Of a DNA stretch of 64,000 bases, positions 4,312-64,000 are shown in pieces (position 1 is the first letter of the stretch; every line of letters starts with the position of its first letter). The notes under the pieces were generated by a model. It saw only the letters and a program-made list of their open reading frames with translations, ran no database searches and had not been told where the DNA came from. Source of the DNA: Cyanidioschyzon merolae (lineage: Eukaryota); NCBI GenBank assembly GCA_000091205.1, contig AP006496.2. One strand, given 5' to 3'. The translations under genes were made by a program, and so were the position numbers.

Positions 4312-4480
4312 GGTTCACGGAACTGTCGTGTGTGCTGTTCTGGAAGTCAACAAGCAGCCGCTTATTCAGAACGTTCCTGGTACGCGAATTGCGCGCAGAG
4401 CGCACTGCACGTGCGCGATCGCAGATTTTTCTCGATTTGCAAAAACTTTTACGTAGACCATGGATCCCAGATTGTGGGAT

Positions 4481-4592: not shown

Positions 4593-4739
4593 TCGGGAAA
4601 GCGTCCATCATGTTGCGACACCCTACTTCCAAGTTCCATGACCCATACTTCCTCTTTGGTATACTGGTCGTTTCGTATGTTCTATCGTGCGCCGAGTACC
4701 TGCTTTGAACCCCAGCACAAGCACCGCTACCGCTGGAAC

Positions 4740-10440: not shown

Positions 10441-12167
10441 ATGGTGGCAGGTGTATAGAGTCTAGGATATGGTTTAAGGCGCAATATGGATGACGAAATG
10501 TAACGGATTGTCGCGGCATGAAGAGAAAATTTTAGATGTACGAGTATTCATGAAGCCAAGACTGTACTCATCTGACGAGCCGCTGCAAGCGACACAGTAC
10601 AAGTAACGCTGATCATTTTGACGATAGTGGACATTTTTCTTGTTGTGCATTGTGTACAACCTGGCGCATAAGCAGCGCGCGCTCTCCAGCAGTGGCTCTG
10701 CACCGCGACCGCAACTACCTCGTGTATTACACAATTCCCGCAACAGAGTACGCTCACCATCGACATGATCCGTCTCTAGTTGCGCGCTTACGGCGTTACA
10801 AGTTCCAGCTGGCGGCTATTCTGACACTATCGGGAAGTGCTCTGGTTGCAGACGGAGAACCGGAACCAGCGCGACGAAAGAGCTGCAGTCGAACCGCAAT
10901 TCTCTGATGCAAAGGTTCACAGAATGCTTCGTTCGTGATGCAGCGTGGAGAGAAGCAGTGCGCTCCCTCCATTGCCCCAAGTTCCTTTTCGTGAACTGAC
11001 CCGCAGGCACTACGGGCATCTTCCTGATACCGCCAGTCCGTTTATTGTTGCTGCTCGGGCAACTTGAAGTGCTAGACGGTTTCTGCTAGAAAACCCGCCA
11101 AAAAGCTTGCTATACGGCGTTTACATATGAATCTGCCTAGTAACCCTAGTCGTCCGGCGTTCTCGCTGGCCGAGGAGAACGTTGTCACTTCGGAATGCAG
11201 ATGCTGGCGCGACATCCTCGGCGCGATGCATTGCTGCCCAGAGAGTTCCACAATCGAATTTGTCTGTTTCGTGTCTGCCACAGCATGTGGAATACAAATG
11301 TTTGCCGAACAGAAGATTGAAAGTTCTCCAACAGGTCCGGTCGCTGCAGTGTGCAACGCCTGCGGAGGCGCTCCCGCGTTCGAGGTTATTTATTCAGAGG
11401 GTTTCAGGCACTCACGGTTTAAAAGCATGAACCAGACCCGATCGCACAACGGCTCGTACGATAGCTGTCGCTGTGTCGTCTTCGATACGCCGTGGCGAGG
11501 CACTGGCAAAGCTACCTCTCCATCAGTCCCTGGTGTGGCGCTGAGCTCGTGGCCCCAGGCTCTGAAGGTCTGGGGGCCCTTGGCTTCGCTGCAAGCGCGA
11601 GTTTTCCGTAAACAATGTTCGTAAAACTCTTCCAAAGCCTCACACAGACCACGATTCGATTCGTGCACGCCCATACCGTCAGTGCACCCGGCGTCAGGCG
11701 TGTCGTAAAGGTAACACTGGAGCCCGCTCGTTGCCCTGTTTGGAGGACGCTTGTGTGCTGTGTTGCAACTTGCTCGCCGAGCCACAGTCGTTCGCTAAAC
11801 GCACCAATTACACCATGTTAATCTCAAGTCCGAGTAGAGCACTGTTCGAAACGTCCTCTTTATGCCAGAGTCGAGAATGGCTCTTATTCGCAAACGGTCT
11901 GAAAGAAATAATGCGGCGGGTGTGCGGCGTCGCCCGTGTTCATCGAATATCCTGCATCGAGTTGGTGCTGCCAGGAGGATATTGTCGTGAATATCGATCA
12001 ACATTCATCCAAGACGCATGTACCTCCGGAGGGAAATATGGAGAGTAGTGGTTCGAACTTGAATCTACAGAGCGGTATCATGGATGCTCACGCTGAAACC
12101 GATAACCGTCACAGAATCAGGGCTCCCTGCTTTATGTCAATATTCTTCGACACTACACTGGCGACGG

Positions 12168-27944: not shown

Positions 27945-28483
27945 GACGCGGGAGACGACTGGCATCGATCACGATTGCGACGCTGCCGAAGCTGCTGCGG
28001 TTCATAGAGCGAGATCCCTGCGATTACGTAAACAGCGGTATACCGATGTATAGGCATAGCGCGCACCGGGAGCTTGTGTGTTCGCGATCCGCCTCAGGTT
28101 CATGAGGACCGACATTGATCCCCAGCTAGCTGCTGCGGTGCCTTGCCGAGCGTATCTTGTCGGAGCAGCAGGACGCTGATGTGCCTGGCTTCTGGATGTC
28201 AGTATCCGGCACTTGATCAGCAGATCCTTTATCAGACGAAGTGATTCTATATTATTGAAAAATCGACGAGCTGGAGCCCATGACATGAATCGAGACCGCA
28301 TGCACAGTCCTGCCCGTTCGCTTTGAAGATATCGCTCGTCAGAGGTCGGAGCAGCTATCAAAGTATATGCATAAGACTATCTCCTCGTCAATAGGTTCCG
28401 TCGCTCACGTTGTTTAGGCTCAATGAAGCGAAAACGTTTCGCAACTATCGGGTGCAAGAATACCCACCCGCAGATGCCTCCCA

Positions 28484-29893
28484 GTCTTTTTTCGACGGGC
28501 CTCTTGGCATCGGCTTCAGTTTCTCCTTGAATACTTCGAGCTTCAGAGGCTACACTACAAAGACGGAACGCGTCAGCTCTGCGGGTCTGGTCGACAGCAC
28601 TGCACATCGTCTGGTATTCATGGAGATGTTGAAGGATCGGTTTACGAACTCTTTGCGATTTGTTGCCGCTGGTGGAACTCACCGTTGCAAGGGTTGTGTA
28701 GAGCTCGCGCCTGCTGTGCTTCGACAGTCTCGTCTTCGTCCCGCTGGGCAAATACGTTTTCTCGACGATCTCCCCTCTTCTCCTTCTCCTTCTCCTTCTC
28801 CTTCGTCGCTTGCGCTTCTTCGCTCGATGGTCGGTGAGAAGAGGATTTTTCCGTTTCTCTTCCAGGCGGCTGGCGATGACGGCCCTCGTGTATCCCCGAC
28901 TTTCATGTCCATTACTTTCACGTGGATTCCCTTATTTCTTCAAAATGAATGCATTTTTTATGCCGCTAGGTTGGGATGTTCCCGAAGAAGACCGGGGTTT
29001 GCGCAAGAAAGCTGACCTGTGCTCCCGATTTGTCGCTGTGTGCAGAACGCTTCTGCGATTCCTCCAGTGCAGCAATCATTACGTTGCATGATAAAAAACA
29101 CTCCCTTGCTGAGGTTGAATCACGCACCGTACGGAGTAATGAAAAGCAACTCGACCCCGATATCATCGGCAAAAGCCCTAACGCAAAGGGAATGGTAACA
29201 TGCAACATTGTCCATTGGAAGCACGTCGCCAGACGTCAGGGAGAGGTCACCCGTGAATCGACCAGGTCGGTGCTGTTGTGTGCGCCTTCTCTAGGAGCGA
29301 ACGTGATTCTGCCACCCGGGCCCACTCCAGATAAATCCGATGAGGATATCATCGCTCTCTTCGAGCTTCAACAGACGTACAATGAGCGCCCTGCTCCGCG
29401 AATACCCATATACGCACCGCCCGTTTCACCCGAAGCAAGTCTCATCGACAGAAAAAACACACCAGCGTCACTCGGCTTCATATCGATAGCGACTCTCCAT
29501 GAACGCTGTCGTTGCGATTTCAGTGGATGTTGGTCGTGCGTGAAGCTGGACTTTTCTGCGACGGTATCCCAGTGATTTCAGGACCACACGAACAAGCTGT
29601 TGAGAAACAGAGATGCCCGTGGCGGCCTCTATCGTCGCTTTTGCTTTCCGTAACGTAAACGAGGGGTCGTTTTCTACCATTTCCCGCAAGCGCGCTTTGA
29701 GAATATCGGTTTTAGGTGCAGAGCGCTTGTACTTCTTCCTTTCAGCGTTCCTCAACCATCTGAGTACCGTGGTATGACTAACTTGAAGGAGAGATGCAGT
29801 CTTCCTTGAACTTTTCAGTAAAGAATATATCCTCCAGGCAATTCTTCTACGATCTACAGGGTACATTCCATAGTGACTTTGTTCGCTTGCTAC
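28484..29893 (-). mobile_element. Tc1/mariner/IS630-superfamily-like transposon remnant, family 2 copy A (~1.41 kb)
   Basis: 98-99 % identical, inverted copy of 40452..41858 (translated ORFs differ by 1-3 aa). Contains a transposase N-terminal HTH ORF and an internal (TCTCCT)n microsatellite. Boundaries come from direct alignment of both copies ('cagtcttttttcgacgggcc' … 'ctttgttcgcttgctacacac'). Confidence 0.8.
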
Positions 29894-29950
29894 ACACCCC
29901 AGCAGCCGTGAAACGAATCTGGGTTGAAATACGATAAACAACGTCATCAT
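29468..29950 (-). pseudogene. Truncated Tc1/mariner/IS630-type transposase (paired-like double HTH only; DDE domain absent)
   Basis: '…YSLLKSSRKTASLLQVSHTTVLRWLRN…KRSAPKTDILKARLREMVENDPSFTLRKAKATIEAATGISVSQQLVRVVLKSLGYRRRKVQLHARPTSTE…' has the HTH1, GRPR-like linker and HTH2 arrangement of Tc1/IS630 transposases. The ORF stops where the DDE catalytic core should begin. Confidence 0.6.
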
Positions 29951-30337
29951 GAACGACGATGCGCGTTTTCATAGTGTACGAGCGATGCTTCGAAACACGG
30001 ATACTTCGGATGTGCGGTGATTCTCGGCAACAATGACAACGCATGTGACGTTGTCAGAGCGCATGCTGTCGCAGACCTCAAAAAAGAACTTGATTCTGGT
30101 TAGAGCAAGCTCCACAACGGTGTTGCAGCAGAGCTTTTTCGTTCATATGCGCAACAGACACACATCGACACCAAGACAAGACTATGAAAAGCTATGAAAC
30201 GAATGTACGAGAGGCGAGTTCGGAGGCATCAGCACCAGTCAATCCAGTCGTAACTGCGACAGCGATGCATGCATCCATGAGGAGGTCTTGCTCATCATTA
30301 TCAACATTCCTGCTCAACATGGGCTTTCATAACGTCT

Positions 30338-31312
30338 TTACTCGACATGATGGAGCCAGTGCAATGTAAACGCACCAGATGCTGCATCGTCTTGTCTGTT
30401 CATGAACGCGTACAAAGCATCGTCGCCGGAAAGCGCCCAGAGGAACGCTGCCGCCCTGGTCGCTTCGTCTCGGAGTTTCTCCTCATTGGTTAGCCATTGC
30501 GAAAAGGTTTCCTCATCGCCAATCTCTATCCCACTCGAATACGTTGGTCGATAGAAGTGCGCAATGGTTTCCGCTCGATCCTGAAGCAGCGAAAACAGCT
30601 GACGCAGCGCTTCCAACGCCCGCTGATGCAGCGTCTCTGCGTAGACCCAGCGTCTTCGGGTACGTCGGAGGGCACCAACGCCAGGCTCCAAACGCTCTGC
30701 GCTCTCGCTCATTGTTGCTTGAATGCGTTTCACCAGGTGCGCGACTCGGATCCAAAGTCGATGTGGATGAAGCTGGTAGAGCGCACTCACGCCAGTCAAG
30801 CCGGCAGGCAGTGGCTCTGCTGCACCTAGAGCGGCAATCACCAGCGGACACTCGTCTATCTGTCGCATGACTGCGCCAACGAACTGTTTTAGTGGGGTTG
30901 CAAGAGGCGCCTCTAGTTGATCGCGGTACCTGCACGCGTGCTTCAGTCGGCGCCAACACGCAAAGAGCGCGAACCATTGGTTCCCATTTCGAACGAGCCC
31001 TTTAGCACCTTCCAATAGCTCTATGAAGCGAACGGCTGTACGCGCAGTCTCACGTTCAAGGCTCGTTGCCTCCATACAAAGTCGCTTACCCTCTGAAGCG
31101 GCTTCATCGCACGATGAGGACGCTGCGCAGACAAGCCACGCTCCCGAGTCTGCGTCGAAATAGTTGCGGTGCTCCCGCTGCCATCGGCTAAATGAGAGCA
31201 CTGCTCTGGAAACTCGCTCCTCTAGCGTTTCCAAGGACGTCTCATCCTCGGACATAAACGTTTCCAGTGCCAGTTGTTGTCGGAGCGAAGGCTGGTGTTC
31301 GAAACACCACAC
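30338..31312 (-). CDS. Hypothetical protein (324 aa), no recognised domain
   Basis: Uninterrupted ORF in a gene-dense block with protein-like composition. No motif recognised. Confidence 0.3.
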   Translation of the reverse strand: MWCFEHQPSLRQQLALETFMSEDETSLETLEERVSRAVLSFSRWQREHRNYFDADSGAWLVCAASSSCDEAASEGKRLCMEATSLERETARTAVRFIELLEGAKGLVRNGNQWFALFACWRRLKHACRYRDQLEAPLATPLKQFVGAVMRQIDECPLVIAALGAAEPLPAGLTGVSALYQLHPHRLWIRVAHLVKRIQATMSESAERLEPGVGALRRTRRRWVYAETLHQRALEALRQLFSLLQDRAETIAHFYRPTYSSGIEIGDEETFSQWLTNEEKLRDEATRAAAFLWALSGDDALYAFMNRQDDAASGAFTLHWLHHVE

Positions 31313-31469
31313 TGGTGCGTTTCGGCATCGAGCAGCAGCGCGGGTGCTTCACAACGCCTCTGCCGCTGTTCCCAGTGCGCTCTGTGCGAGCACGTTTCCT
31401 ACAAGCGACCTGGGGTTCGTCTGACGGAAGACCGGCAAAGCAGAGCGAGGTACGTTTCCAAGCGGAGGT

Positions 31470-33212
31470 ATGCCTGTGGTGTCTGCGCAAGAGCGTGATG
31501 TCGTCGAGGCTAGTTCGCGTGAGGCGACGCATTCAGGGTACGTCTTGCGGGCCAGTGGAGAGCTTTCTTCGACCGCCGCTGAGTCGAGTTCCGCTCCGGA
31601 GGTACCTCGAACGCCTTCCGGAGCGGCTGGCTGCACCGCACTGCTTTCTGCTACCTTGACACCTACGGGGTCTCGAAGCAACGACTCGGGTAACGCGGAG
31701 ACCTCGACAAGAAGCGCGCTGGGCACTGCAGTAGGTGTTGTTCGTGTTGCTGGCGCCCCTGCTCGTCCACCTTCTACGACTACGACTGTTACTGCTACTG
31801 CTGCTACTGCCGCTACTGCTGCTACTGCTGCTACTGCTGCTACTGCCGCTACTGCTGCTACTGCCGCTACTGCTGCTACTGCCGCTACTGCTGCTACTGC
31901 CGCTACTGCTGCTACTGCCGCTACTGCTGCTACTGCTGCTACTGCTGCTACTGCTGCGTCATCGCCTCAGCCGAGCACCTCAGGGTCTGGAGGAGCCCCT
32001 GTCACAGAACCGAGTCGCCCGCGCTCGCAGCGTCTCTCGTGGTTCACCATCGCTCGTCGACTCTTATCGCACGGAGGGAAGAAACTCGAACTCGCCAGTT
32101 TCTTGAATGCGCTGCTTTTCCTCGGCCTCTTGACCAACTTGCACCTGACATATGTGAATCGAGCGGGCTGTGCCCCGACCCTATTGGAGCAAATGGCTCA
32201 GTTCCACCCGGAAGCACGACACGATCCGGCTCTGCTCCTGCGCCGCTACGACCTCGTCCAAGTACAAGTAGTGCCGACGCCACTCCCGCTGCAACACTTT
32301 CACAACACCTGGTCTGGCCTGCAGCCACTGTGGGAGCGGTTGTTGCCTCGTCCGCAACGGTACCAGTTCGCTACAGAAAAGGGATTTTTGCTACTAAGTG
32401 AACAGGCCAGACGAAGCCACAACATCTCCGAGTTGCATCTGGAGCTGACGACGAAAGATACGTGCTATGGTGCGTCACCATTCATGCGCGGTATTCTCAA
32501 GTACATTGTCGGTAGTGAAACCGTCGTTCTGAACGCTTTTGCGTATCTGCTGCAGTATGGCCTCCGACACGGCCACAGTAGTGGTCAGCGGTCGCTCGGC
32601 ACGGATGGGTACGTGCTCAACGTGCAGAGCGGTGATATCTATAACATCGGTCGGGTATTTATCGGGGAACTATACGCGCGCTCCGCTTACTTTACCGATG
32701 TCTTTCTGTTGAAAACGGGCGTGTTACTAACGTCAGCATATGTGATGTTCACCATAGGTGCACTGATCGCGTTTGCGTTACGGGAAGTGCAGTCAAGGAT
32801 CATGAAGTTAGCACTGGAGATCCAGAATGCTCGGAATCGCACGCCATATGCCGGAGCGCTGTTTAGCAGTTCGATTCATGCGCTGGTGCTGGTTCCGATT
32901 ATTACAGGTATCCTTTTCTTTCTTTTTGAATTCTTCGATAATCAGCTGCTTGCGTTTTGCGTGCTCGTTGTCGCATGGATTGCGGAGGTGACGGTCATGT
33001 TGGGCTGGCGGAGCGGCCTCTCGATCTACATCCTTCCGCGGGCGTTTGCAGCGTACTTGTTAGCATTTCATATTTACTTTTTCTCGTTTCCCCTGGGTTT
33101 TAGCTGGTTAGCGCTCTTCACCTGTGCCGCGTTCATGCAGCACACTGTTTTTCTGGTTTTCTCTCGGTTCGAGTCACCGCGGCTTCGCGCTGAGGCAACA
33201 ACGCAGCGATGA
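31470..33212 (+). CDS. Hypothetical multi-pass membrane protein with internal (Ala-Ala-Thr)n low-complexity tract
   Basis: 580-aa ORF. The N-terminal half is Ser/Ala/Thr-rich and includes ~20 x AAT encoded by a GCT-ACT-GC[C/T] repeat. The C-terminal ~250 aa contains 5-6 hydrophobic helices ('LLTSAYVMFTIGALIAFAL', 'ALVLVPIITGILFFLFEFF', 'LAFCVLVVAWIAEVTVMLGW', 'AAYLLAFHIYFFSFPLGFSWLALF'). Confidence 0.45.
   Translation: MPVVSAQERDVVEASSREATHSGYVLRASGELSSTAAESSSAPEVPRTPSGAAGCTALLSATLTPTGSRSNDSGNAETSTRSALGTAVGVVRVAGAPARPPSTTTTVTATAATAATAATAATAATAATAATAATAATAATAATAATAATAATAATAATAATAASSPQPSTSGSGGAPVTEPSRPRSQRLSWFTIARRLLSHGGKKLELASFLNALLFLGLLTNLHLTYVNRAGCAPTLLEQMAQFHPEARHDPALLLRRYDLVQVQVVPTPLPLQHFHNTWSGLQPLWERLLPRPQRYQFATEKGFLLLSEQARRSHNISELHLELTTKDTCYGASPFMRGILKYIVGSETVVLNAFAYLLQYGLRHGHSSGQRSLGTDGYVLNVQSGDIYNIGRVFIGELYARSAYFTDVFLLKTGVLLTSAYVMFTIGALIAFALREVQSRIMKLALEIQNARNRTPYAGALFSSSIHALVLVPIITGILFFLFEFFDNQLLAFCVLVVAWIAEVTVMLGWRSGLSIYILPRAFAAYLLAFHIYFFSFPLGFSWLALFTCAAFMQHTVFLVFSRFESPRLRAEATTQR
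31782..31955. repeat. Imperfect 9-bp (GCTGCTACT / GCCGCTACT)n coding microsatellite, ~19 units
   Basis: Direct reading 'gctactgctgctactgccgctactgct…'. Translates as (AAT)n in the CDS frame, poly-Leu in another, and (SSS/GSS)n on the reverse strand. Confidence 0.9.
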
Positions 33213-33923
33213 AGAGCGCCCGGGACTAGGACGCAGCGCACTGCATGCTTGGCGATGCGCGGGTACCATGTATAACGTGCTGCGCTCCTTGAAAAGTGTT
33301 TCTTGATTCGATGGTTTTGTTTGCAGCTTCATCGGTGCGAATGGCTGCTTGGTTGGCTTGCGACGGGTAATGCACAGCGCTTGCGTGGTGTCTCAGGCAG
33401 CTTTACGCTTGGACAACTTGCAAGCATGCCAGAAACGCCAGCACTTGTACCACTTTGGTGCATGCGAGACCACCGTGTGACGGTGCGATTTTGCATTTCG
33501 CGTGAGTACGTGCTATAGAGGGCGCGGCGGATGTCTGGCGCTGGACCAGGAACGGGCATTGCTGACGACTCCATCACGCTTTCTGGCGAGCGTATGCAAC
33601 AATCCTCCTTTCCGTGGTCAGGGTCGATGCCTATATGAGCAATTCGTATTGGTTGCATGGGTAGCGCGAGCGTTTCGTGCTACATGCGCTCGTCGTCCGC
33701 TGTGCAGCAGCAGGCAGACGCGTATCCTGGACAACAAATGCGCCGGCCAACCAGACGACGGGCAACGATTCGGTACGGTAAACGAAGCAACTTCAGTCAT
33801 ACCGAGTCCGGGTTGCTTGTGCGTGGGCAAAAGATGACTCTCGTTCCATTCGAGTTCAAACGAGCGTCGTGAATCGCCACTGCCGCAACATCGCTGATGA
33901 GTGAAGTACCCGCCGCGCCAGCG

Positions 33924-34448
33924 TCAGTCTCCGGGGAGGCGCACCAGATCGCGCCTCTTGCTCGGAGTTGGCTTTGGTGGATCTCCCGTGGGCGACAAGT
34001 CTGGAGAAATCGCCATCGATCCCGGTGTTGTTGTTATTGCTGTTGTTCTTGTCCCCGTTGCTGTCGTCGGAGGGGGTGCTTGCCGCACAGGCGCCGTACT
34101 GGCACCAGTGTGTGGCGTACGCGCACCGGCACGACGCTGGGCGTTCTCGGCGCCGTCCCGAGACGAACTTGGAGTCTCCTTCTTTCCAGGAGCGACGCCC
34201 TTCAACCTGAGCTCATAAGCCCGGACTTTGGCCGACACGTCACCGTCGCTTTCGTTCAAGTTCTGTCCATTATGTTTCTCGTGGAGTGCTGTGTAGTGAG
34301 CGATTTTCTCCCGAACCGTCCCGGACGAAGTATCGAGAGAATCATTGACGCTTTGTTCGATTGAAGAATTCGCACTCTTACTAACCGTCTCAAAAAACTC
34401 CTTCGCGGATCGTACGCTTAAGCTTGAGTTTAAAGTCTGTTGGGACAT
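33924..34448 (-). CDS. Hypothetical acidic/Ser-Thr-rich protein (174 aa)
   Basis: ORF with protein-like composition ('…KIAHYTALHEKHNGQNLNESDGDVSAKVRAYELRLKGV…'). The overlapping plus-strand ORF is Cys-rich low complexity and less convincing. No family recognised. Confidence 0.22.
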   Translation of the reverse strand: MSQQTLNSSLSVRSAKEFFETVSKSANSSIEQSVNDSLDTSSGTVREKIAHYTALHEKHNGQNLNESDGDVSAKVRAYELRLKGVAPGKKETPSSSRDGAENAQRRAGARTPHTGASTAPVRQAPPPTTATGTRTTAITTTPGSMAISPDLSPTGDPPKPTPSKRRDLVRLPGD

Positions 34449-34887
34449 GGATAGAAGTTTTCAGAGTCTATTGTCAGGTGTGCAGGTTGCGGGAAAAACG
34501 AATTTGCTGCGATGCGTGTCTGCGGCCGCAGGCGACGTCACGGCGGGAAAAACGGCTGTTGTCGCTCACGTGCAATGACGATCATGATGATCATGATAAT
34601 GATGATGGCTATGCCGTCCAGCAAATTCATTGGCATTGCAGCCTTCGGTTTTGAAAGCTTCTACATTCCTTTACTTGTCTGGGCGAATTCCAAGCAAGCA
34701 TCTGCCTCAAACGGTACCATAAAGAGAAAGCATTTGGATACCTCGCTCTCTCTACGTGAGCTTTGGAGATTCAGCGGGGGCTATTGCATGTTTCCAGCAC
34801 GCAGCAGCTACGTCATTCGTGTAGCGACTCGGACGCGTCGTGATCGGCGGTTCTATAATTGTACGTACTTACGCCGGTGTACAAAAA

Positions 34888-35045
34888 CACATCTAGATGC
34901 ATCGATCACTCAACGCAATCCGCATTGCACTGCCACGGTGATCGTAGATATCAACGTAAGTGCGCCTGCATACAAGCACATCTAGATGCATCGATCACTC
35001 AACGCAATCCGCATTGCACTGCCACGATGATCGTAGGTAGAAACG
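34888..35045. repeat. ~89-bp tandem duplication (2 units)
   Basis: 'acacatctagatgcatcgatcactcaacgcaatccgcattgcactgccacg[g/a]tgatcgtag…' is repeated starting at 34888 and 34977. Confidence 0.85.
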
Positions 35046-36220
35046 TTGGCTCCAAAGCGAAATCCCCTCGTGCTACGATGTTTGTTGGAATAGGATCGAA
35101 CAGTTCAACGAAACGTTCCAGAATGCGTGGGCGCTTCCAGAGAGAAGGCTGTGGATCTCAGCGCTTCAAGCGGTGCGATCCCGTCGTGCGGTTTTGAAAA
35201 TGATGCTATTTCCGGCAGCAGCGACTGGATCGATTCAGACGCTTGCTTGGCATCAAGCCGGTCTCGAACGGTCGCTGCACCTTCACCACCAGCACATCCA
35301 GCGTCACTGGGGTCATGCTGCGCAGACAGCACTGCCCTACAGAGCCTTGACGAGTATCCGCTGACAGAACGGCGCCCTATCGAGCCAACGCATACCGCAA
35401 CGGATGATTCGGGAGAGGCGCTGGCTGATGCAGTATGGCGAGAAAGTAGCGTTTTGTCCAAATGTTCTGTACCATGCGCAGATCAGACGCTTCGGATGGA
35501 CGAATGTATCTGGTTCGTCAACGGACGATCAAACTCGAACGGCGACAGCACGACGTGATTTGCCGACAATTGCTGCATTTTTGAAATGAAAGCCGCTCGT
35601 CGGAGCGACGCTGCACCGTTCCATATCGTTATGCGGGAGCGTCTCGTCGGCAGTTGGGAGCTTGTTGTCGTCGGCATATGCCGCTGAGCGCAGGCACGAC
35701 GACCAAACTGCAAGTTCACGAAGCAGGGTGCGTCATGCCCGCCAACAGCGCCGTCAGGAGCCAAAAGCGTCGAGAAGCAGACGCTGCTTTCAGCTGCTCG
35801 CCGGAGATAGCGCTCACCTAGGCTCCACGTTCATGCAGCAGAACTCTCTTACAGCATGGGATACTGTACCGTTGCGACGGTAGCAATGCCAGTGAGTACG
35901 TTCGCGTTGCGTTTTCTGTGCTGAAACCAGGTGATTTGCACTGTTCGAAGCGCCCCGTCATCCCAGCATAGGCCAACTGGATGCTGGCACTGCAGATTTC
36001 TCCTGAACCGGGTCGACGGAACTTGGATGCAGCGCGCGGTCCACAAGCTGCAGCACGTTTACAGAAGAACAAGGCTCGCGTAGACAATCAACGAACGAGT
36101 GCGACCTGCTCACCCTGGGGTATGCTCGATACCGAGCATCGCATCAGCGTTTGTCCAGGGGTACCCCATACCGCCAGACACATCCGTATCGTGAACGCGA
36201 TGACAAAGTCGCGTATGACC

Positions 36221-39200
36221 TCAAATGGACTCGGCGACTTTGGACTTGTGAACGAGGTCAGCCAAGTTGTCGAGGAAGAGACTCGGCGTCAGGAGATGCG
36301 TACCGCCTATGTAGACGTCGAGGTTCGGCATCTGCCGTGCGAACGTAGCCGCTATCCGACACTCTGTGCGCGTAAGGCCGCCAATAAAAAAGATCATCAG
36401 CACATCCTGGGATGGTGCACTCGACTGGGTGCTCACGGGGCGTGCTTCCACCAACGCACTCGTCGACGAAGCAGCGCAGTTGCGGCATGCATCATGTTCG
36501 CTCGAAGCCGAACGAATCTCCATAGCGGACTGAGAGACATGGGCGCCTGTCGGGAGCAGCGCATCCTGCTCAAGGACGCTACCTATCGACTGTAATGGGC
36601 TCGGCTGTCCGCTGCGTACTGGAGGCGTCCTCATTTGCAGTCCAGACGGGAGATATTCTTGGTACCGTTGCGTTCTGGTGTGTGTGGTTGAGGGCGCCGC
36701 TGTCGTCGACATGAAGGCACGGGCTGCCGTCGACGTGCTCGTCGAGGTAGCGTCTGCTCCTGGACTCGAGTCGATCGAAGGCGACACTGGGTTTTCAGAT
36801 GTGTTTCCTGCGGCTGCACAGCGACCGAGAATCTCGAGCAACAGCGGTGCACCATCACGAGCTCGTCGCTGTCTTTTGATTGGTTCTGCACTGTGACGCT
36901 CTGCCCGCAGGCACTCGATAAAGGCACGAAGGCTGGCTCGACCGCGGTCGTCGATCTGGGCTTTGGCCATCCAGCGTACCAGCAGGTTCGCGTCTGCACC
37001 GCGGCACGCTACCCAGAGGAGGATAAGACGCAACTTGGCGGAGGGTTCAACGTTGGGCTGTTGGAGCAGGGCCTCAACTTGTTGCTGCTGCTCTGCGCGT
37101 CGTACTTTTTTGCCGCTCCGGGGATCCTTGCCTGTCACCAGAATCGCCTCGAGTTGTACGATACTCGCCATGTAGCGTGACTGGTACAAGGCGGTGCATT
37201 TTTCAAGCTGATCCAGGTGGAAGCTGAGTCGTTCGACCACTCGCTGATATTCGACTACAGACTTGTCACCGAGAGTCGCGTTGGCTGACCCCTCGTTTCG
37301 AGGTCTGGAGCGAGCACTGCCCAGCGCGAACTCGCGCTGACTCGACTGACTGGCGTGTCCAGTCTCTATGAGAAACCTGTCCAGTTCAACATGTGCACTC
37401 GATGCTGCCTCGTGGATATCGAGATAGCGCAAACGCAGCCACGTTGGATCGTCAGGCGTATTCAAAGTCAGCGGTATGCTCCCGATCGACGTTGTCTTGA
37501 ACAAACTACGCTGCGGCTTGACCACAATACTCGTTGGATGACTATCGACCGGAACCGGGAACATGTCGTGCAAGAAGGCATCGTACGCGAGATCATGTCG
37601 CAGTGGTGTCAGCGGGTCCGTCGCTCGATCAATGAGCACGAGACGGACGCTGCGGCGACGATACCGGCTGCGAGAAGTACCAGTACCTGCTGCTCGCAGC
37701 TCGTCTGACGGTGCTTCTGTACAAGCGCTTGGTACAGAAGCCGTAACGTAGACGGCTTCAGCGGTAGACCGGGACGTTTCCGCGTTCATAGCCGCACGAA
37801 GCGCGTCCGCAATACCCATGGCGACGCTGCTGGCAATATGGGTGGTATGGATCTCAATCTTTGGCAGCTCAAGCCCGAGGATTTGCAATACCGAGGCGAG
37901 CTGATCACCCAGTTGCTTGCATGCCCGCTTCCATTGGGTACTCGAGTCGCCTTGCTCCGGCCTGTTACCGGATGGTCCGGTGTTCCGACCGTAGAACGTT
38001 CCAAAAAGCTCCGGCAGCTCGAAAGAGAACGCGTAGTCATCGATTGGGACTAGGTCGGCATGGAGCTCCCTAACTTGCAAACTGGCGTGCATCCCGCCTA
38101 GACTTGTTCGGACTACATCGAGCAACGGACTCGTTATCGACCGGATAGCCAAGAGCAATACGTCGAAACGGCGTTGGTGTCGAGTCGACGTTGGTGTTGG
38201 CGTCGATGATGAGGCTCGCGGTGAGAGCCCTGTGCACACCTGTGCGACCTGTGCGAGCGAGGTATCGTCCCCAGTAACCAGGAAGATGGTGTTCGTTCGC
38301 GACGGCAGGTTCTTCAGCTGTGCCGCTTCTTCGAGGGACTCAACGCCAGTGATCCCGTGGTCAGCAAGATCCGATAAACGGCAGACAGCGGCGAGGATAT
38401 GTGTGCAACGTGCATCCAAAACGAGCGTTTCCCAGCAGCCGTGTCGCGGGCGGATACTCCCGAACGTGGCCCCAACGAAGCGCATACGCAGAGCCTCTCT
38501 CAGACTGGGAGTCGATCGTAGGGTCTGTGAGACGCCGGGCGTCTCTGGTGGACGCTTCGGACCAGTGCTACGCTGCGGTGGTATGGAGTGCTTGTCGGGG
38601 GCCGTGCCACCACCGCCACCGCCAACGGTGCCACAGGCACTGGAAAGCGCAGCGATGGACAGGGTTGTTCGCTTTTCGAGCTCTGTTTCTTCATCGTCTG
38701 CTCTCTGAAGCCTCCGTTTGGCATTGTTTCGCTGCCGCTGACGACGTCGGTAGACGTAGTAGAGCGCCCCGAGTACGGCTGCCAAACCAAGGACGACGCT
38801 GGCAACCACACCGCCGATGACACCAGCGTTGCTGCTGCTGCTAGAGGATGAAGATCCCTGCTGCTGCTGCTGCGAGGACGACGACGACGACGGTGCTGGT
38901 TCCGCTGTAGGAGCAACTTCTGCTACGTCTATCGTCCCGCTGGGGCAAGTCGCCAGTATGCCGGTATCGAACGTGAGTCTACCACCACACACATACGACT
39001 GCAAACGAGCGGATGCGAGCGCTGTACCGTTCGCGCTTGCGTACGGACTCGAGTCCGTAACGAGACTGTAGTAGGACGCGTAGACGGAGCCCGCTCGCAC
39101 GCCCACAAGCCACGTCGTTTGGAAGCCGAGGCGAGTATCTAATGCCGACCGAATCACAACATCTATAGCACCAGCGTAATCGCTCAGGTTCATCGCTGGG

Positions 39201-40138
39201 AAATAGAGAGTATAGGCGAGACGAATGCCGTGCGTCTCGTTCACCGGGGTGATCCATGCGGGTGACGGTTCCACTGAGGGCACAGGATTGATGCTCTGCG
39301 GAGATGCAGCCGGTGTTGCCGCTGAAACCTGCACGGTACCGTCTACGGTCCAGTTCTGGAAAAGCAGTGGGCTATCGCCGGAGGCAAACAATCCTATGGT
39401 TCCGGAGAGCATTGCGTCTGTAGCTGTATCCACAAGGGTGCCCCATGGACTCCAACCGTTCAGACTCGCCTGGAATCCGCGTCCAATGGCGGTAAGTGTT
39501 AGGATGAAGGAGTCGCTGGCGTTCAGGCTCGGAACACTGGTGGCATTCGATGTCGCGAGCGTACGCCCCTGAAAGCCGGGTCGTAGTCTTTCCAGAGTCA
39601 GTGTCTGATTCGGACCCGTCCAAAGCAGCAGATAAAAATCGCTCACATCCCGTGCACGTGCAACGATACCCACAGTACTACTGTTGGCCGAAGCGTTAAC
39701 AGCGGCTGTCACGGTGTAGTCGGTCCAGTGCGCTATAGCGGTGCTGTTAACAAACAGCGCAAGGGCACCTTCGAAATCTGTTGACTCCAGGATCGTCGTG
39801 TTCGATGTTGCGTTTCCACTGCCCGCAGGCCCAGGCTCGTATAGTAACGTTCCATCGCTGAGAAGCGACCAGCTCGTTTCAGCAGACGCAGACGAACCCT
39901 CGCTCAGCACAAGGTACGAGCGGAGGCTCTCGAACGGCAGACTGCATGGACACGCACTGAAATTGAACGAATCGAGAGAGAAAAGCTCTGATACTTGAAC
40001 CGCCTGGCGCTCTAGATCAAGAATCAGCGCTCCAGCCAACTCAACGGATACAAGTGCAAGCAACAAACAAAAGAGAATAGCTACCCAGCCACGACACCAG
40101 CGTCGCATAGGAGGCCAATGTGCATGAGTTGCCAACAA
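36221..40138 (-). CDS. Sec1/Munc18 (SM) family protein fused in one ORF to an N-terminal signal peptide, N-glycosylation-rich ectodomain and single TM helix
   Basis: SM-domain start 'WETLVLDARCTHILAAVCRLSDLADHGITGVESLEEAAQLKNLPSRTNTIFLVTG'. SM C-terminus 'VLMIFFIGGLTRTECRIAATFARQMPNLDVYIGGTHLLTPSLFLDNL'. The N-terminus has a cleavable-looking signal ('…WVAILFCLLLALVSVELAGA'), more than 12 N-x-S/T sequons, the TM helix 'VIGGVVASVVLGLAAVLGALYYVY' and the stop-transfer 'RRRQRQR'. Confidence 0.7.
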   Translation of the reverse strand: MLATHAHWPPMRRWCRGWVAILFCLLLALVSVELAGALILDLERQAVQVSELFSLDSFNFSACPCSLPFESLRSYLVLSEGSSASAETSWSLLSDGTLLYEPGPAGSGNATSNTTILESTDFEGALALFVNSTAIAHWTDYTVTAAVNASANSSTVGIVARARDVSDFYLLLWTGPNQTLTLERLRPGFQGRTLATSNATSVPSLNASDSFILTLTAIGRGFQASLNGWSPWGTLVDTATDAMLSGTIGLFASGDSPLLFQNWTVDGTVQVSAATPAASPQSINPVPSVEPSPAWITPVNETHGIRLAYTLYFPAMNLSDYAGAIDVVIRSALDTRLGFQTTWLVGVRAGSVYASYYSLVTDSSPYASANGTALASARLQSYVCGGRLTFDTGILATCPSGTIDVAEVAPTAEPAPSSSSSSQQQQQGSSSSSSSSNAGVIGGVVASVVLGLAAVLGALYYVYRRRQRQRNNAKRRLQRADDEETELEKRTTLSIAALSSACGTVGGGGGGTAPDKHSIPPQRSTGPKRPPETPGVSQTLRSTPSLREALRMRFVGATFGSIRPRHGCWETLVLDARCTHILAAVCRLSDLADHGITGVESLEEAAQLKNLPSRTNTIFLVTGDDTSLAQVAQVCTGLSPRASSSTPTPTSTRHQRRFDVLLLAIRSITSPLLDVVRTSLGGMHASLQVRELHADLVPIDDYAFSFELPELFGTFYGRNTGPSGNRPEQGDSSTQWKRACKQLGDQLASVLQILGLELPKIEIHTTHIASSVAMGIADALRAAMNAETSRSTAEAVYVTASVPSACTEAPSDELRAAGTGTSRSRYRRRSVRLVLIDRATDPLTPLRHDLAYDAFLHDMFPVPVDSHPTSIVVKPQRSLFKTTSIGSIPLTLNTPDDPTWLRLRYLDIHEAASSAHVELDRFLIETGHASQSSQREFALGSARSRPRNEGSANATLGDKSVVEYQRVVERLSFHLDQLEKCTALYQSRYMASIVQLEAILVTGKDPRSGKKVRRAEQQQQVEALLQQPNVEPSAKLRLILLWVACRGADANLLVRWMAKAQIDDRGRASLRAFIECLRAERHSAEPIKRQRRARDGAPLLLEILGRCAAAGNTSENPVSPSIDSSPGADATSTSTSTAARAFMSTTAAPSTTHTRTQRYQEYLPSGLQMRTPPVRSGQPSPLQSIGSVLEQDALLPTGAHVSQSAMEIRSASSEHDACRNCAASSTSALVEARPVSTQSSAPSQDVLMIFFIGGLTRTECRIAATFARQMPNLDVYIGGTHLLTPSLFLDNLADLVHKSKVAESI

Positions 40139-40451
40139 GCCTCGTGTTGGTTGCCTCCTATGTGAGCGTTACCGCTGTCGCTCTCGTCACCAGGGTAACG
40201 AATGAGCCAGAAGGACGACACTTGGCATATGCGACTTGCGTCCACGCTAAACACCGTTACCTGAGCGACGACGCATCCAAAGCAACGGTGCTTTCCCCGA
40301 GGGATAGGTACGCTTTGCTCAGCAGCAGCGCGTAACGGACGCGTTCTAGGGGCGCGCGGCACAACGATCCGCATCGGGGCCATTTTCGCTCTGGAGGGCG
40401 CACCCCAGGCTCGACGTCGATTCTGTTCCACCTCTCCTAGTACCTCAGTGG

Positions 40452-41858
40452 TGTGTAGCAAGCGAACAAAGTCACTATGGAATGTACCCTGTAGATCGTA
40501 GAAGAATTGCCTGGAGGATATATTCTTTACTGAAAAGTTCAAGGAAGACTGCATCTCTCCTTCAGGTTAGTCATACCACGGTACTTAGATGGTTGAGGAA
40601 CGCTGAAAGGAAGAAGTACAAGCGCTCTGCACCTAAAACCGATATTCTCAAAGCGCGCTTGCGGGAAATGGTAGAAAACGACCCCTCGTTTACGTTACGG
40701 AAAGCAAAAGCGACGATAGAGGCCGCCACGGGCATCTCTGTTTCTCAACAGCTTGTTCGTGTGGTCCTGAAATCACTGGGATACCGTCGCAGAAAAGTCC
40801 AGCTTCACGCACGACCAACATCCACTGAAATCGCAACGACAGCGTTCATGGAGAGTCGCTATCGATATGAAGCCGAGTGACGCTGGTGTGTTTTTTCTGT
40901 CGATGAGACTTGCTTCGGGTGAAACGGGCGGTGCGTATATGGGTATTCGCGGAGCAGGGCGCTCATTGTACGTCTGTTGAAGCTCGAAGAGAGCGATGAT
41001 ATCCTCATCGGATTTATCTGGAGTGGGCCCGGGTGGCAGAATCACGTTCGCTCCTAGAGAAGGCGCACACAACAGCACCGACCTGGTCGATTCACTGGTG
41101 ACCTCTCCCTGACGTCTGGCGACGTGCTTCCAATGGACAATGTTGCATGTTACCATTCCCTTTGCGTTAGGGCTTTTGCCGATGATATCGGGGTCGAGTT
41201 GCTTTTCATTACTCCGTACGGTGCGTGATTCAACCTCAGCAAGGGAGTGTTTTTTATCATGCAACGTAATGATTGCTGCACTGGAGGAATCGCAGAAGCG
41301 TTCTGCACACAGCGACAAACCGGGAGCACAGGTCAGCTTTCTTGCGCAAACCCCGGTCTTCTTCGGGAACATCTCAACCTAGCGGCATAAAAAATGCATT
41401 CATTTTGAAGAAATAAGGGAATCCACGTGAAAGTAATGGACATGAAAGTCGGGGATACACGAGGGCCGTCATCGCCAGCCGCCTGGAAGAGAAACGGAAA
41501 AATCCTCTTCTCACCGAACATCGAGCGAAGAAGCGCAAGCGACGAAGAAGAAGGAGAAGGAGAAGAGGGGAGATCGTCGAGAAAACGTATTTGCCCAGCG
41601 GGACGAAGACGAGACTGTCGAAGCACAGCAGGCGCGAGCTCTACACAACCCTTGCAACGGTGAGTTCCACCAGCGGCAACAAATCGCAAAGAGTTCGTAA
41701 ACCGATCCTTCAACATCTCCATGAATACCAGACGATGTGCAGTGCTGTCGACCAGACCCGCAGAGCTGACGCGTTCCATCTTTGTAGTGTAGCCTCTGAA
41801 GCTCGAAGTATTCAAGGAGAAACTGAAGCCGATGCCAAGAGGCCCGTCGAAAAAAGAC
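40452..41858 (+). mobile_element. Tc1/mariner/IS630-superfamily-like transposon remnant, family 2 copy B (~1.41 kb, inverted relative to copy A)
   Basis: Reverse-complement match to 28484..29893 across all ORFs (199-aa ORF has 2 substitutions; the transposase-HTH ORF is identical over the shared part). Confidence 0.8.
40482..40880 (+). pseudogene. Truncated Tc1/mariner/IS630-type transposase HTH domain (copy B)
   Basis: Same 'YSLLKSSRKTASLLQVSHTTVLRWLRN…' sequence as 29468..29950. No DDE core follows. Confidence 0.6.
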
Positions 41859-42022
41859 TGAGAGGCTTCAGAGGATATATACACGCCCCATGATAGTGCA
41901 AAGAACTGCGTTTCATTGAACACGCGCTGACGCGAGTACAGTTTGGTTGCGCTTGTACTTGCGGTAACGCTACGTCTCGAAAAGCGCGCATTAACCTCAC
42001 AGATGCTTTTCTTGCACTTCCA

Positions 42023-51284: not shown

Positions 51285-52235
51285 TTGTTTTACAGCTCCC
51301 GCAACAGTCGTAACAGCGCGATGCTCCAAGCCAAAGAGGCATCGTTCGGCTCGAGCCAGCCGGTAGCTATCATAACGGGTGCATCCCGGGGGATAGGTCG
51401 GGCTATCGCCTTGACCCTTGCCGAGAGGGACCGCATGGTTCTCGTACTCGCGGCTAAGAGCCGGGTGTCTCGTGCAAACCTGCCTGGAACTGTGCAGAGC
51501 GTCGCTGACGAGTGCCTGGCTCGTGGTGCTGCTGCGGTTCTCCCGTTCCCGCTTGACGTCCGTGACGACCAAGGGATCGAGCGAATGGTGCACGAGACGC
51601 TACAGCGATTCGGTCGAATCGACGTGCTGGTGTGCAACGCTGGTGCTTTATGGTGGAAACCGGTGGCCGAGACGCCCCTCGAGCGCTTCGATCTCGTCCA
51701 TGGTGTCAACGCCCGAGGCTCGTTTGCCTGTGCCCGCGCAGTTCTGCCCGCTATGGTGCGTCAAAAGACCGGCCTCATTATAACGATGTCGCCGCCGGTA
51801 GAGCTTGACGCGCTTCCCGGAATGACCGGGTATTTGATAAGCAAGTTCGGAATGACCATGCTGGTTCACGGGCTTGGTGGCGAGCTTGCCGGCACTGGCG
51901 TCACCTCGGTGGCTCTTTGGCCAGCTACGATGGTAGAGTCTTTCGCGACGAAGAACTTCCAGCTCGGAGATCGCTCGCAATGGCGAAAAGCCAGCATTAT
52001 CGCTGATTGCGTCCACATGCTTCTCCATGACCCTGAGCGCAACGCATTGAGCGGTCGTGCGCTCATCGACGAAGACTACATGCGCTCTCGCGGTATCCGA
52101 GACTTTTCCCAGTACCGCTGCGATCCAGATGTGGAGCCAGAGCGAGCCTGGCCTCCACGCAAACCGTGGGCATCAACCGCGAAGGACCCCAGAGCGCTAC
52201 CACCTGGTGTCTCGCTAGCACCGTCCAAATTATGA
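51285..52235 (+). CDS. Short-chain dehydrogenase/reductase, HSDL2-like (probable start at Met 51321)
   Basis: Rossmann 'VAIITGASRGIGRAIALTL', 'VLVCNAGAL' (NAG motif), catalytic 'YLISK' (YxxxK). '…GTVQSVADECLARGAAAVLPFPLDVRDD' resembles the HSDL2 N-terminal SDR domain. Confidence 0.8.
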   Translation: MFYSSRNSRNSAMLQAKEASFGSSQPVAIITGASRGIGRAIALTLAERDRMVLVLAAKSRVSRANLPGTVQSVADECLARGAAAVLPFPLDVRDDQGIERMVHETLQRFGRIDVLVCNAGALWWKPVAETPLERFDLVHGVNARGSFACARAVLPAMVRQKTGLIITMSPPVELDALPGMTGYLISKFGMTMLVHGLGGELAGTGVTSVALWPATMVESFATKNFQLGDRSQWRKASIIADCVHMLLHDPERNALSGRALIDEDYMRSRGIRDFSQYRCDPDVEPERAWPPRKPWASTAKDPRALPPGVSLAPSKL

Positions 52236-57198: not shown

Positions 57199-59295
57199 TT
57201 ATGTGGCTTCATCGGATACCCTCTGCCAGACTTGTGCGAGCAGGCTTCGATCAAGCTGCCATACACTGGACAAGAGCGCAAGGCTCACCCCAATTGTCCA
57301 TCCGAATCCAACCTGGGGAACGTATTCACCGCCGTTGCCACTCTCTCCGACCTTTTCCGCGTGATACTTCTCGAAAAGATCACCACTCCGAAGCCAGCCC
57401 TGGTATACAGAACGCAGAAATCGGATGGCTATCTGCAAAGAAAGTTCGCGAGCTCGGTTGGAGATTTGCTCATTCGCGGAAAACTGCGTCGCTAGCGACG
57501 CAAACGCTTCGTGCAGCAGGAGTTGCACGGGTGGCCACGCGTTCGGGTAATCCCACTGTTGACCCGAATCGGTCACCAATGTTGCAACAACGCCTCCGTT
57601 TTGCAGGAGACCACTCTCCTCGAACGACTGGAGCACGCCACGCGCGATGGAAGCCGCTTGTTCCGATTCGATATGCTCGAGGATGCCGCTCCAGAGCGGG
57701 AAAAAGTTGCTCGAACTCACCGTCTGCCGCCAATCTGCAACCGTTTGCAGGGTCGTTGTATCGGCCTCCAGGTCGTAGTCGATCCATTGATCCCGGCTTG
57801 GTACGTATAAATACTTTTGCATCGTAGAGACCCGCTGTTGGACTCGATCAAGCAAGTCTCTTGTCACTGGGTCATTGGGGACCTCCTCATTTCCGGGTAA
57901 CCGCTGTTCGAAAATGCTACCTTTTTCCGTTTCCGGTCGGCTACCGCTGATATACCATCGGTAGAGAAAAGCGAGATTGCGTTCCATGCGAAGCATGAAA
58001 CTGTTGAAACACACAGGAATAATCAACTGCGTTCGGATGGAGCACATGCTTCGCCGGTCGCGCAGCCAGCGCGACGAAAAGTCCCATCCGCTTTCCGCTG
58101 CTGCAGTCAAGGCGATGAAGAGCTCACTCCGCCGCGGATCACCGAGAAGTTCCATCGAACAGTCACTTGCAAGTTTCGAGTCCTCGTAGAAGGATTCCGG
58201 TCGCGGTCCTTCGGCTGCGGGCGCATGGTAACGATTTAGGGTTCCCCCTGCGCGCATCTTTACCGTCCGTTGCTCCATCATGAAGCTGTATTCACGCTCC
58301 AGAAGCGGCAACGCTCGCCCCAAAAATGTCATCACGTCCCATCCGGCATGTGCATGCTCTGCGATGCAGCGCACCATATCCGAAAGTAGTGGTGGTTGGG
58401 TACGATTCAGATAGTAGATGCGGGCACCGTTGGGCACAAAGCCGAACTGCTCTACCAGATCGAGAAGATTCTCAACGCAGCAGCGCGCAGTCTCCCACAT
58501 ACCGCAGACCAGAAGGCCGCGAACGATGAAGTAGGTATCCCAGTAGTAGCACTCGCGGAATCGACCACCAGCCACGATGAATGGATGTTTCAGGGGCAGC
58601 AGACTGAAGCGTTCAGGTTCTCTGAACACCATCGGCGAGGTCTCGCGACCGAGTTTTCGCCAGCGTGCGACCATATCCATGAGCCAGTTTCCCGCATCGA
58701 CATCCTGTGCTTTCATCCAGCGCCAGATCTGGTGCAGCAACGGTGGCGAACCGGTCGCTGTCGTTCCAGGTTCAGGGTCCAGCTCCAACTGCGGCAAGTC
58801 CCGCGGGATCCAGGCAAGCAAGTCGCCACCAGGCGCGTAGTCAAAGTGCTCTAACAGAAAGCGACGTACCTCCTCGAAGTCGGTGTCAGGTCCCTCGACA
58901 CGTGCTAGCCGAAAGGTGGGCACAGGGGGCTCGCGCTCGGCCTCGCGGAGCCCGCTGGTTGCTTCGCCTGGGCCCGCCAGCGGCTCCTCAACAACGCGGC
59001 GACCGAACTCAGCGTCCCAGTACTCTATGATCCGCTCCGGTATTCGCCCAGGTAGCAGAGGCAGATCCACAAAGTGTTTTGAGTCAGCGAAAATGCGCAG
59101 TCGCTGAACGACTGCGAGCAGCGACTTTTCACAGCCGGCACTAGTTTCAGCGCAGTTGGCGGCACAGTATACAACCGAACTCGGAAATGCAGGCGCCAAC
59201 GCGCCCAGACGAAAAGCCATATGCACGTACGCTTCGATGACTTTCAATGTCATGGTGCTCAGGTTACGGTACTGAACAGTTGCATAGTACCACAC
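57199..59295 (-). CDS. Trehalase (glycoside hydrolase family 37)
   Basis: Trehalase signature 1 'PGGRFRECYYWDTYFIVRGLL' and signature 2 'QWDYPNAWPPVQ'. 698-aa uninterrupted ORF. Confidence 0.88.
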   Translation of the reverse strand: MWYYATVQYRNLSTMTLKVIEAYVHMAFRLGALAPAFPSSVVYCAANCAETSAGCEKSLLAVVQRLRIFADSKHFVDLPLLPGRIPERIIEYWDAEFGRRVVEEPLAGPGEATSGLREAEREPPVPTFRLARVEGPDTDFEEVRRFLLEHFDYAPGGDLLAWIPRDLPQLELDPEPGTTATGSPPLLHQIWRWMKAQDVDAGNWLMDMVARWRKLGRETSPMVFREPERFSLLPLKHPFIVAGGRFRECYYWDTYFIVRGLLVCGMWETARCCVENLLDLVEQFGFVPNGARIYYLNRTQPPLLSDMVRCIAEHAHAGWDVMTFLGRALPLLEREYSFMMEQRTVKMRAGGTLNRYHAPAAEGPRPESFYEDSKLASDCSMELLGDPRRSELFIALTAAAESGWDFSSRWLRDRRSMCSIRTQLIIPVCFNSFMLRMERNLAFLYRWYISGSRPETEKGSIFEQRLPGNEEVPNDPVTRDLLDRVQQRVSTMQKYLYVPSRDQWIDYDLEADTTTLQTVADWRQTVSSSNFFPLWSGILEHIESEQAASIARGVLQSFEESGLLQNGGVVATLVTDSGQQWDYPNAWPPVQLLLHEAFASLATQFSANEQISNRARELSLQIAIRFLRSVYQGWLRSGDLFEKYHAEKVGESGNGGEYVPQVGFGWTIGVSLALLSSVWQLDRSLLAQVWQRVSDEAT

Positions 59296-63713: not shown

Positions 63714-64000
63714 ACGAGTGAGAACTTTGGGGACAACCTCTCAGCGTGGGACTATATGAGAAAAAGCTGGAAGCAGTAGTGAGTGGCCGCCCCCAAAAAA
63801 CCGGGAGGCACCTGCACGACAGTTGGAGGCTTCTTGTCTAGGGCGGGCTTCGCGCCACTACTGTACAAGGTCGGCATCGTTTTTCTTTTGAAAGACGTTT
63901 GTTTCCAGGGGTGGCTCCTAGTATATTGCTTCGCGCTGCCGCAGGCACTAGTCCTGTATGCGCAATTTCAGGCTCCCAGAATGATAAGGAATCCCGATTC

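Follow-up and report, generated by a model that had tools for sequence, protein, structure and literature searches.

What keeps two inverted copies of a transposon-like repeat almost identical on chromosome 14 of the red alga Cyanidioschyzon merolae 10D, and why does each of them still carry an intact open reading frame (ORF) for a helix-turn-helix (HTH) module? C. merolae serves as a model of a "minimal" eukaryote: its genome, assembled from telomere to telomere, contains about 4,800 genes and very few transposons. The 64,000-nucleotide stretch of contig AP006496.2 analysed here (the window) holds one 1.42-kb tract (MAFFT alignment) in two inverted copies spaced 10.55 kb apart. A sequence-only reading of the window had placed such a near-identical pair almost exactly at these positions, and had seen in each copy only the HTH half of a Tc1/mariner/IS630-like transposase with no DDE core. 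Our results show that each copy is a whole IS630/Tc1-type element of about 1.5 kb whose transposase strand points outward in both arms, that a decayed DDE_3 region follows in frame behind the HTH-only ORF, and that this ORF bears the signature of purifying selection. The parts of the pair are the following:

28478-29898, minus strand: left arm of the 98.8 % tract (repeat search, alignment and shuffles)
40450-41866, plus strand: right arm of the 98.8 % tract (repeat search, alignment and shuffles)
28417-29929, minus strand: left element, full length 1513 bp, decayed (nhmmer family profile and family end alignments)
40408-41921, plus strand: right element, approximate ends (nhmmer profile and alignments)
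29468-29866, minus strand: left HTH-only ORF, 132 amino acids (aa) plus TGA stop (Pfam match, environmental copies)
40482-40880, plus strand: right HTH-only ORF, 132 aa plus TGA stop (polymorphism, dN/dS, AF2 model)
28961-29467, minus strand: left DDE_3 remnant, in frame behind the HTH ORF stop (tblastn and conceptual translation)
40881-41387, plus strand: right DDE_3 remnant, in frame behind the HTH ORF stop
28417-28960, minus strand: left 3' non-coding part, including the imperfect 3' terminal inverted repeat, ...GTGAAACGTTTTCGCTTCATTGAGCC (end alignments, profile)

Two whole elements inactivated by point mutations

The nhmmer family DNA profile matches the left element from 29929 to 28423 (profile positions 1-1448) and the right element from 40421 to 41899 (positions 7-1432). 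In the right copy the ORF ends at its own TGA at 40878, and the conceptual reading frame then meets further stops at 40920 (TGA), 41055 (TAG) and 41226 (TGA). All four in-frame stop codons are common to both copies, which share every lesion, and a fifth one segregates in the DDE remnant of some strains. Over 91 % of its length the 302-codon conceptual product shares 37 % identity with P0001, an intact 346-aa metagenomic protein that possesses Pfam DDE_3 (PF13358), scores 131.8 bits with the NCBIfam IS630 model and carries the triad D187/D264/E299 (DD34E). This DDE_3 homology and the IS630 relative bear out the earlier assignment to IS630/Tc1/mariner, and contradict the statement that a DDE core is missing. 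D141 (in VDET) and D219 (in MDN) are kept in the window copies, while NPIE has become NLSK, so that the catalytic E is K in both; the three positions are spaced by 77/34 residues, as in the DD34E type. Two of the window stops align to R and W of P0001 (CGA>TGA and TGG>TGA, respectively). An alternative genetic code was ruled out, the stops being a mixture of TGA and TAG that align to R, W or G in relatives. Judging from these lesions, both copies are dead as transposons and were killed by point mutations, not by internal deletion. The sequence-only reading had pointed out that a full-length relative might unmask the copies as internal deletion derivatives, an explanation that does not fit point-mutated copies with a recognisable DDE_3 region.

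No terminal inverted repeats were found where the 99 % tract stops; the true ends of the elements are situated farther out, and it took a collection of paralogues to recognise them. Alignment of paralogue ends gives TA followed by GTCTTTCAACTCAATTTCGTTTCACC... as the 5' family end and ...GTGAAACGTTTTCGTTTCATTGAAC as the 3' family end. The imperfect terminal repeats of about 27 bp share TTCAA...CGTTTCAC (5' end GTCTTTCAACTCAATTTCGTTTCAC versus reverse-complemented 3' end GTTCAATGAAACGAAAACGTTTCAC). TA duplications had been suggested as a check at the four element ends. The left copy is flanked by TA at 28415-28416 and 29930-29931 (read from the sequence), and the right copy by CA and AC; the terminal parts of the right copy (~40 bp at the 5' end and ~55 bp at the 3' end) no longer resemble those of the left one closely. 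In several paralogues TA precedes the 5' end, and the 3' ends are variable. A blastn-short search of the window for a 5' partner of the outer terminus gave noise only, and no convincing terminal inverted repeats were seen around the intact relative on contig L003.

A metagenome scan with a two-sequence alignment returned 78 loci. Samples with ~99 %-identical copies of the window also yielded contigs that carry at least nine further family loci; these belong to the same ~1.5 kb family (DNA 68-80 % identical, protein 36-62 %) and stops or frameshifts occur in every one of them. No intact family member of C. merolae was found among the environmental family loci, and intact relatives (27-40 % identity) were found in unrelated environments only. 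Within the window there is no other full copy.

The HTH-only ORF and its signature of selection

Identical 132-aa proteins are encoded by the two arms, and the ORFs are indeed intact in both copies as the sequence-only reading had remarked; an upstream in-frame ATG at 29950 would extend the left ORF to 160 aa. In the AlphaFold2 (AF2) model the protein folds into two three-helix bundles that a loop connects and that are followed by a C-terminal helix, with a mean predicted local distance difference test (pLDDT) score of 72. A PDB sequence search with the 132-aa protein gave spurious polyubiquitin matches only. Only JGI, Logan and ENA sources contain the protein; the NCBI protein set for C. merolae lacks it.

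Among 14 complete and 11 partial copies, five sites in the ORF are polymorphic and all five are synonymous (P = 0.0024 if four transitions and one transversion are placed at random). The DDE remnant shows 11 non-synonymous and five synonymous sites, a distribution different from that of the ORF (Fisher p = 0.012). Moreover, the 90 % protein cluster has four members, all of them exact sub-strings of one sequence, and contains no amino-acid variant across 44 contigs. The density of variable sites does not differ between the HTH ORF (3/399 bp) and the 3' non-coding part (6/479 bp) in eight aligned copies, and hence the case for selection rests on the synonymous/non-synonymous pattern.

A comparison independent of the pair is offered by an unlinked paralogue (P0125, on contigs L007 and L106-L110), which lies between a CREG-like and a PDI-like gene and has an intact 132-aa ORF. 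The nearest named relative of the PDI-like flanking protein is from Cyanidiococcus (58 %). The paralogue ends at the same TGA as the window ORF and shares the next TGA too. Codon 133 in other family members is GGA or TGG, and the shared stop is therefore a derived character of this sub-lineage. Between the window ORF and the paralogue the ratio of non-synonymous to synonymous divergence (dN/dS) is 0.28 (p = 5e-5; dS 0.26), against 0.94 for the next 45 codons behind the stop. The two ORFs are 89.5 % identical in DNA with no indel and the DDE remnants 76.7 % with indels, and the synonymous to non-synonymous counts are 22:20 and 34:85, respectively (p = 0.008). Since the dS of the ORF equals the neutral distance downstream, its conservation does not represent a younger conversion patch but a slower pace of amino-acid replacement. 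Polymorphism at the paralogous locus itself (one synonymous and one non-synonymous site) is too sparse for use.

These comparisons show the marks of purifying selection on the ORF while the sequence behind it drifts, and for this reason the ORF is most likely a working gene. We predict with moderate confidence, on sequence evidence, that the truncated transposase still works as a DNA-binding protein. The option of a domesticated DNA-binding domain, one of two offered by the sequence-only reading, thus gains support from the dN/dS of 0.28, the exclusively synonymous polymorphism and the contrast in counts, though it falls short of proof.

Probable gene conversion between the arms

The repeat search recovered the pair as two arm pairs, 28783-29898/40450-41565 (99 %) and 28468-28798/41544-41874 (98 %). 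In the alignment of 28478-29898 with 40450-41866 the tracts differ by 11 substitutions and by an indel of 6 bp within a CTCCTT microsatellite. They are 98.8 % identical, compared with 48 % in shuffled controls. This high identity stops sharply inside the elements, before their termini. Outside the outer tract boundary, 55-61 bp at the 3' end are only 59.7 % identical (shuffles 43.6 ± 3.4 %, z about 4.7), and the 3'-terminal homology is also present in a third fragment at 60.2 kb and in other paralogues. Beyond the inner boundary the left copy matches paralogues for about 31 bp further, and the 5' terminal part of the right copy, which carries a 9-bp insertion, is 47.6 % identical to the left copy, a value not significant alone. 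In a comparison of eight copies from 10D and from environmental strains, the arm on the GOST-family gene side and the arm on the QueG-like gene side share their alleles in a mosaic.

Because the near-identity breaks off within the elements, leaving termini that are only ~50-60 % alike, the simplest reading is that the identity of the arms arose by gene conversion between two old insertions, a process that we infer from its traces, and not by recent transposition or duplication. For the same reason the suggestion that the copies are very young does not hold.

A cluster of eight variable sites in 66 bp of the DDE remnant was also observed across strains in the right arm (40932-40997), and resembles a patch acquired by conversion from a diverged paralogue.

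Orientation of the enclosed block

The arms bracket the following region:

29930-40407, no strand: enclosed block, three genes plus the gene-poor 33.2-36.2 kb
30338-31255, minus strand: hypothetical gene (hyp)
31470-33212, plus strand: Membralin-like gene with a 9-bp repeat
36221-40108, minus strand: Sec1/Munc18-like gene, a fusion (BAM81213)

The hypothetical, Membralin-like and Sec1/Munc18-like genes are as the sequence-only reading had described them, but the annotated genes number three and not four to five. A GOST-family gene (BAM81210) adjoins the left arm on its outer side, and a QueG-like gene is the next one beyond the right arm. Of nine long ORFs of the window that were compared by exact sequence, eight are 10D proteins (BAM81207...BAM81219, including CMN096C), and the transposase ORFs have no slot in these consecutive accession numbers. 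No exact protein match was obtained for the QueG-like gene with two start choices, nor for the GOST protein in the contig index.

Six environmental contigs, all from short-read assemblies, read through the whole repeat (R) into unique sequence on both sides:

L005: Sec1-R-QueG, reference order
L112: hyp-R-GOST, reference order
L113: hyp-R-GOST side, reference order
L006: hyp-R-QueG, inverted order
L082: hyp-R-QueG, inverted order
L090: GOST-R-Sec1, inverted order

Three contigs thus have the reference and three the inverted order, and all four junction types are present. The orientation in 10D is taken as reliable, the reference sequence being 100 % finished (PMC1955436). In L082 and L090 the alleles are those expected from a single reciprocal exchange within the outer 230-310 bp. 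Clustering of the read-through contigs by single-nucleotide polymorphisms (SNPs) of the inner block, for lineage versus orientation, was uninformative, the SNPs forming a mosaic at very low divergence. Since both arms face outward, a flip would leave every local junction as it is, but for a few SNPs, and would be nearly neutral. The earlier proposal that the pair is a substrate for inversion is supported by the four junction types in six contigs, while mis-threading of short reads could give the same result.

Proposed history and alternative explanations

As a whole explanation we consider it probable that two old insertions, gene conversion, a working HTH gene and a flip substrate together account for the locus. 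Two IS630/Tc1-type copies of ~1.5 kb with DD34E spacing would have inserted in opposite orientation, 10.5 kb apart, and intrachromosomal gene conversion would later have replaced the inner 1.42 kb of one copy by the corresponding sequence of the other, whereas the termini stayed diverged. The part kept would be the first 132 codons, a bipartite HTH DNA-binding module that ends at a nonsense codon. Its product may bind the family terminal-repeat sequences scattered in the genome, either as a leftover repressor or as a co-opted regulator. The arms would also be a substrate for reciprocal exchange that flips the three-gene block. A bolder version, which we put forward only tentatively and rather doubt, is that the 132-aa product represents an unannotated and recently domesticated host gene family of three copies that binds terminal-repeat relics, with two copies maintained by conversion and the same arms flipping the block between neutral isomers in nature.

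Several observations weigh against the proposed history. The Pfam match of the ORF to HTH_Tnp_Tc3_2 (E = 1.9e-6, 28.5 bits) is below the gathering score of 31.5 bits, and the best-ranked Foldseek matches of its model, though of the kind expected (Pax6/Pax5 paired domains, IstA, Mos1, SETMAR DNA-binding domain), fall short of significance (E >= 0.3). The polymorphic sites in the ORF are few (five), and many of the contigs come from related samples and are not independent. Both the census and the third copy were seen in metagenome contigs ~99 % identical to the window and not in the 10D genome itself. The right 5' terminus is not statistically distinct from unrelated sequence, and the right copy could be truncated there. 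As to the flip, about 20 other environmental contigs break at the repeat, and a 3:3 split is what arbitrary short-read threading of a 1.4-kb repeat would give. It is quite possible, at a likelihood somewhat short of even, that the orientation differences are assembly artefacts and that the block has one fixed natural orientation: the 1.42-kb repeat is longer than short-read inserts and has stretches of 300-500 bp without a copy-specific site, most contigs break at it, and L090 (assembled with MEGAHIT) stops at a coverage gap after 162 bp of the second copy, its two repeat copies differing at one of these 162 positions, so that it may be a chimera. Artefacts would have to explain, however, why both reciprocal new junctions appear in independent samples and with different assemblers, and why the L082 and L090 alleles agree with a single exchange between arms that demonstrably recombine. 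Homologous recombination in C. merolae is, besides, efficient, and gene targeting routinely relies on it.

Three other explanations concern the origin of the pair or the nature of the ORF, and none of them seems to us as probable. The arms could be the ends of a young or composite transposon, with the HTH half only, that moved or could move the 10.5-kb block, as the sequence-only reading had considered; they are inverted, 99 % identical and bracket genes, and both outer ends are 3' element ends that are mutually inverted. This is scarcely credible, as both copies contain a dead DDE remnant and no intact family member was found in C. merolae, the high-identity tract ends inside elements whose termini are ~50-60 % alike, the outer flanks (TA versus AC) share no duplication, the block carries conserved housekeeping genes, and the flanking genes keep their positions in all environmental relatives. 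A single dead element could instead have undergone a recent inverted segmental duplication, with the HTH ORF intact for lack of time, which would agree with arms that differ by 0.8 % only. With four stops in 302 codons the chance of none in the first 132 is ~0.10, so that intactness of the ORF alone proves nothing. We nevertheless regard a duplication as improbable, because the family homology runs ~55-61 bp past the outer tract boundary at 60 %, shared with the 60.2-kb fragment and paralogues, and because the dN/dS of 0.28 against the unlinked paralogue is a signal of selection independent of the pair. Slightly less remote, though still unlikely, is the possibility that the ORF is not a gene and that its low dN/dS dates from the active full transposase, the stops having spread by conversion or arisen in parallel (CpG/TGG). 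Gene conversion does operate in this family, CGA>TGA and TGG>TGA are easy mutations, and the copy L007b also has TGA at codon 147. Yet the stretch behind the stop, including the first catalytic D, has a dN/dS of 0.94, and the DDE remnant accumulated its 34 synonymous and 85 non-synonymous differences over the same neutral distance as the ORF dS; hence constraint on the catalytic part had already been lost at a time when the HTH part was still subject to it. The exclusively synonymous polymorphism of the ORF, moreover, belongs to the present day.

Relation to known systems

The locus consists of known kinds of system in a model genome where they are unannotated, and does not represent a new kind of biology. 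Like IS630/Tc1/mariner elements of the DD34E type, the copies encode a predicted bipartite N-terminal HTH followed by DDE_3 with D(77)D(34)E spacing, are ~1.5 kb long and have putative short terminal inverted repeats, with TA flanks on the best-preserved copy. Unlike them, all C. merolae copies seen are dead (those of the window with K for the catalytic E and four in-frame stops), and the terminal repeats are imperfect and do not start with the usual CAGT. Eight class II "transposase-related elements", closest to bacterial transposases, were reported from C. merolae without further description (Nozaki et al. 2007, PMC1955436), and we found no paper that mentions both IS630 and Cyanidioschyzon.

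Domestication of Tc1/mariner elements by the DNA-binding-module route has been described in Drosophila (PMC13548663). In domesticated modules of this kind (Drosophila CG4570, cag and toy; Pax; SETMAR) a paired-like HTH is kept under purifying selection and the catalytic part is lost, which resembles the situation here. The C. merolae ORF, a candidate for such domestication, differs in that it still lies inside recognisable elements with a decaying DDE tail, and in that it is known as three copies, two of them homogenised by conversion, in one species complex only. Short HTH-only proteins such as IS1 InsA and IS911 OrfA bind element ends and can repress transposition. The 132-aa protein is similar in being the DNA-binding part of a transposase, and by analogy may bind ends or repress; InsA and OrfA, however, are made from an upstream ORF with programmed frameshifting, whereas the C. 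merolae protein is due to a nonsense mutation and has no transposase left to regulate. With plastid inverted-repeat flip-flop, the yeast 2-micron plasmid, palindrome arms and inversions by non-allelic homologous recombination between inverted transposon copies, the locus shares inverted 1.4-kb arms of 99 % identity, mosaic alleles and both orders in assemblies, but there is no site-specific recombinase here and the isomers are known from assemblies.

Expression of the HTH-only ORFs would mean that a small DNA-binding protein family is missing from the reference annotation, and the locus would offer a clean early-stage case of a DNA-binding module kept while the catalytic half decays. The inverted pair likewise offers a simple example of how repeats may bring about conversion and inversion in a genome whose structure is regarded as very plain. 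Both domesticated Tc1/mariner DNA-binding modules and repeat-mediated inversions are already well known.

Other observations in the window and in related contigs

A second head-to-head family pair is present on contig L007 (Ga0080006_1145071), at 3348-4624 (minus strand) and 9938-10978 (plus strand), 5.3 kb apart. It points outward like the window pair, its copies are mutually diverged (70 % and 80 % to the window copy), and one of them is the third locus with an intact HTH ORF. Three fragments of the 3' part of the family were found on the plus strand of the window (60178-60381, 61454-61543 and 63472-63818); these match only the 3' non-coding ~460 bp (profile positions 984-1448), and the 3' module of the family may constitute an independent repeat. 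The surrounding region, 59.3-64 kb, has no long ORF before 61.8 kb, a lower GC content (~0.50) and strong GC/AT skew. At ~800-1700 on the minus strand there is a protein-level relic of a more diverged IS630/Tc1-like transposase, whose tblastn matches (1697-1362, 1360-1166 and 959-804) are colinear with the HTH and DDE parts, and which the family DNA profile does not detect.

Within the enclosed block, the Sec1/Munc18 domain covers residues ~571-1290 of the 1295-aa product of 36221-40108, and the N-terminal extension of ~570 aa has no Pfam match. The 9-bp-period repeat at 31727-31984 lies within the Membralin-like ORF, and the product varies from 531 to 569 aa across environmental contigs, indicating that the array is length-polymorphic. 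The 3-kb stretch at 33.2-36.2 kb contains short ORFs only, although the genome is otherwise gene-dense, and an 80-nt direct repeat (34878-34957 and 34967-35046, 90 %) is found in it. Outside the block, a short-chain dehydrogenase gene (51321-52235) and a trehalase gene (57199-59253) have paralogues of >90 % identity elsewhere in C. merolae (BAM79784 and BAM79781), which suggests that an inter-chromosomal segmental duplication lies behind these paralogues on another chromosome.

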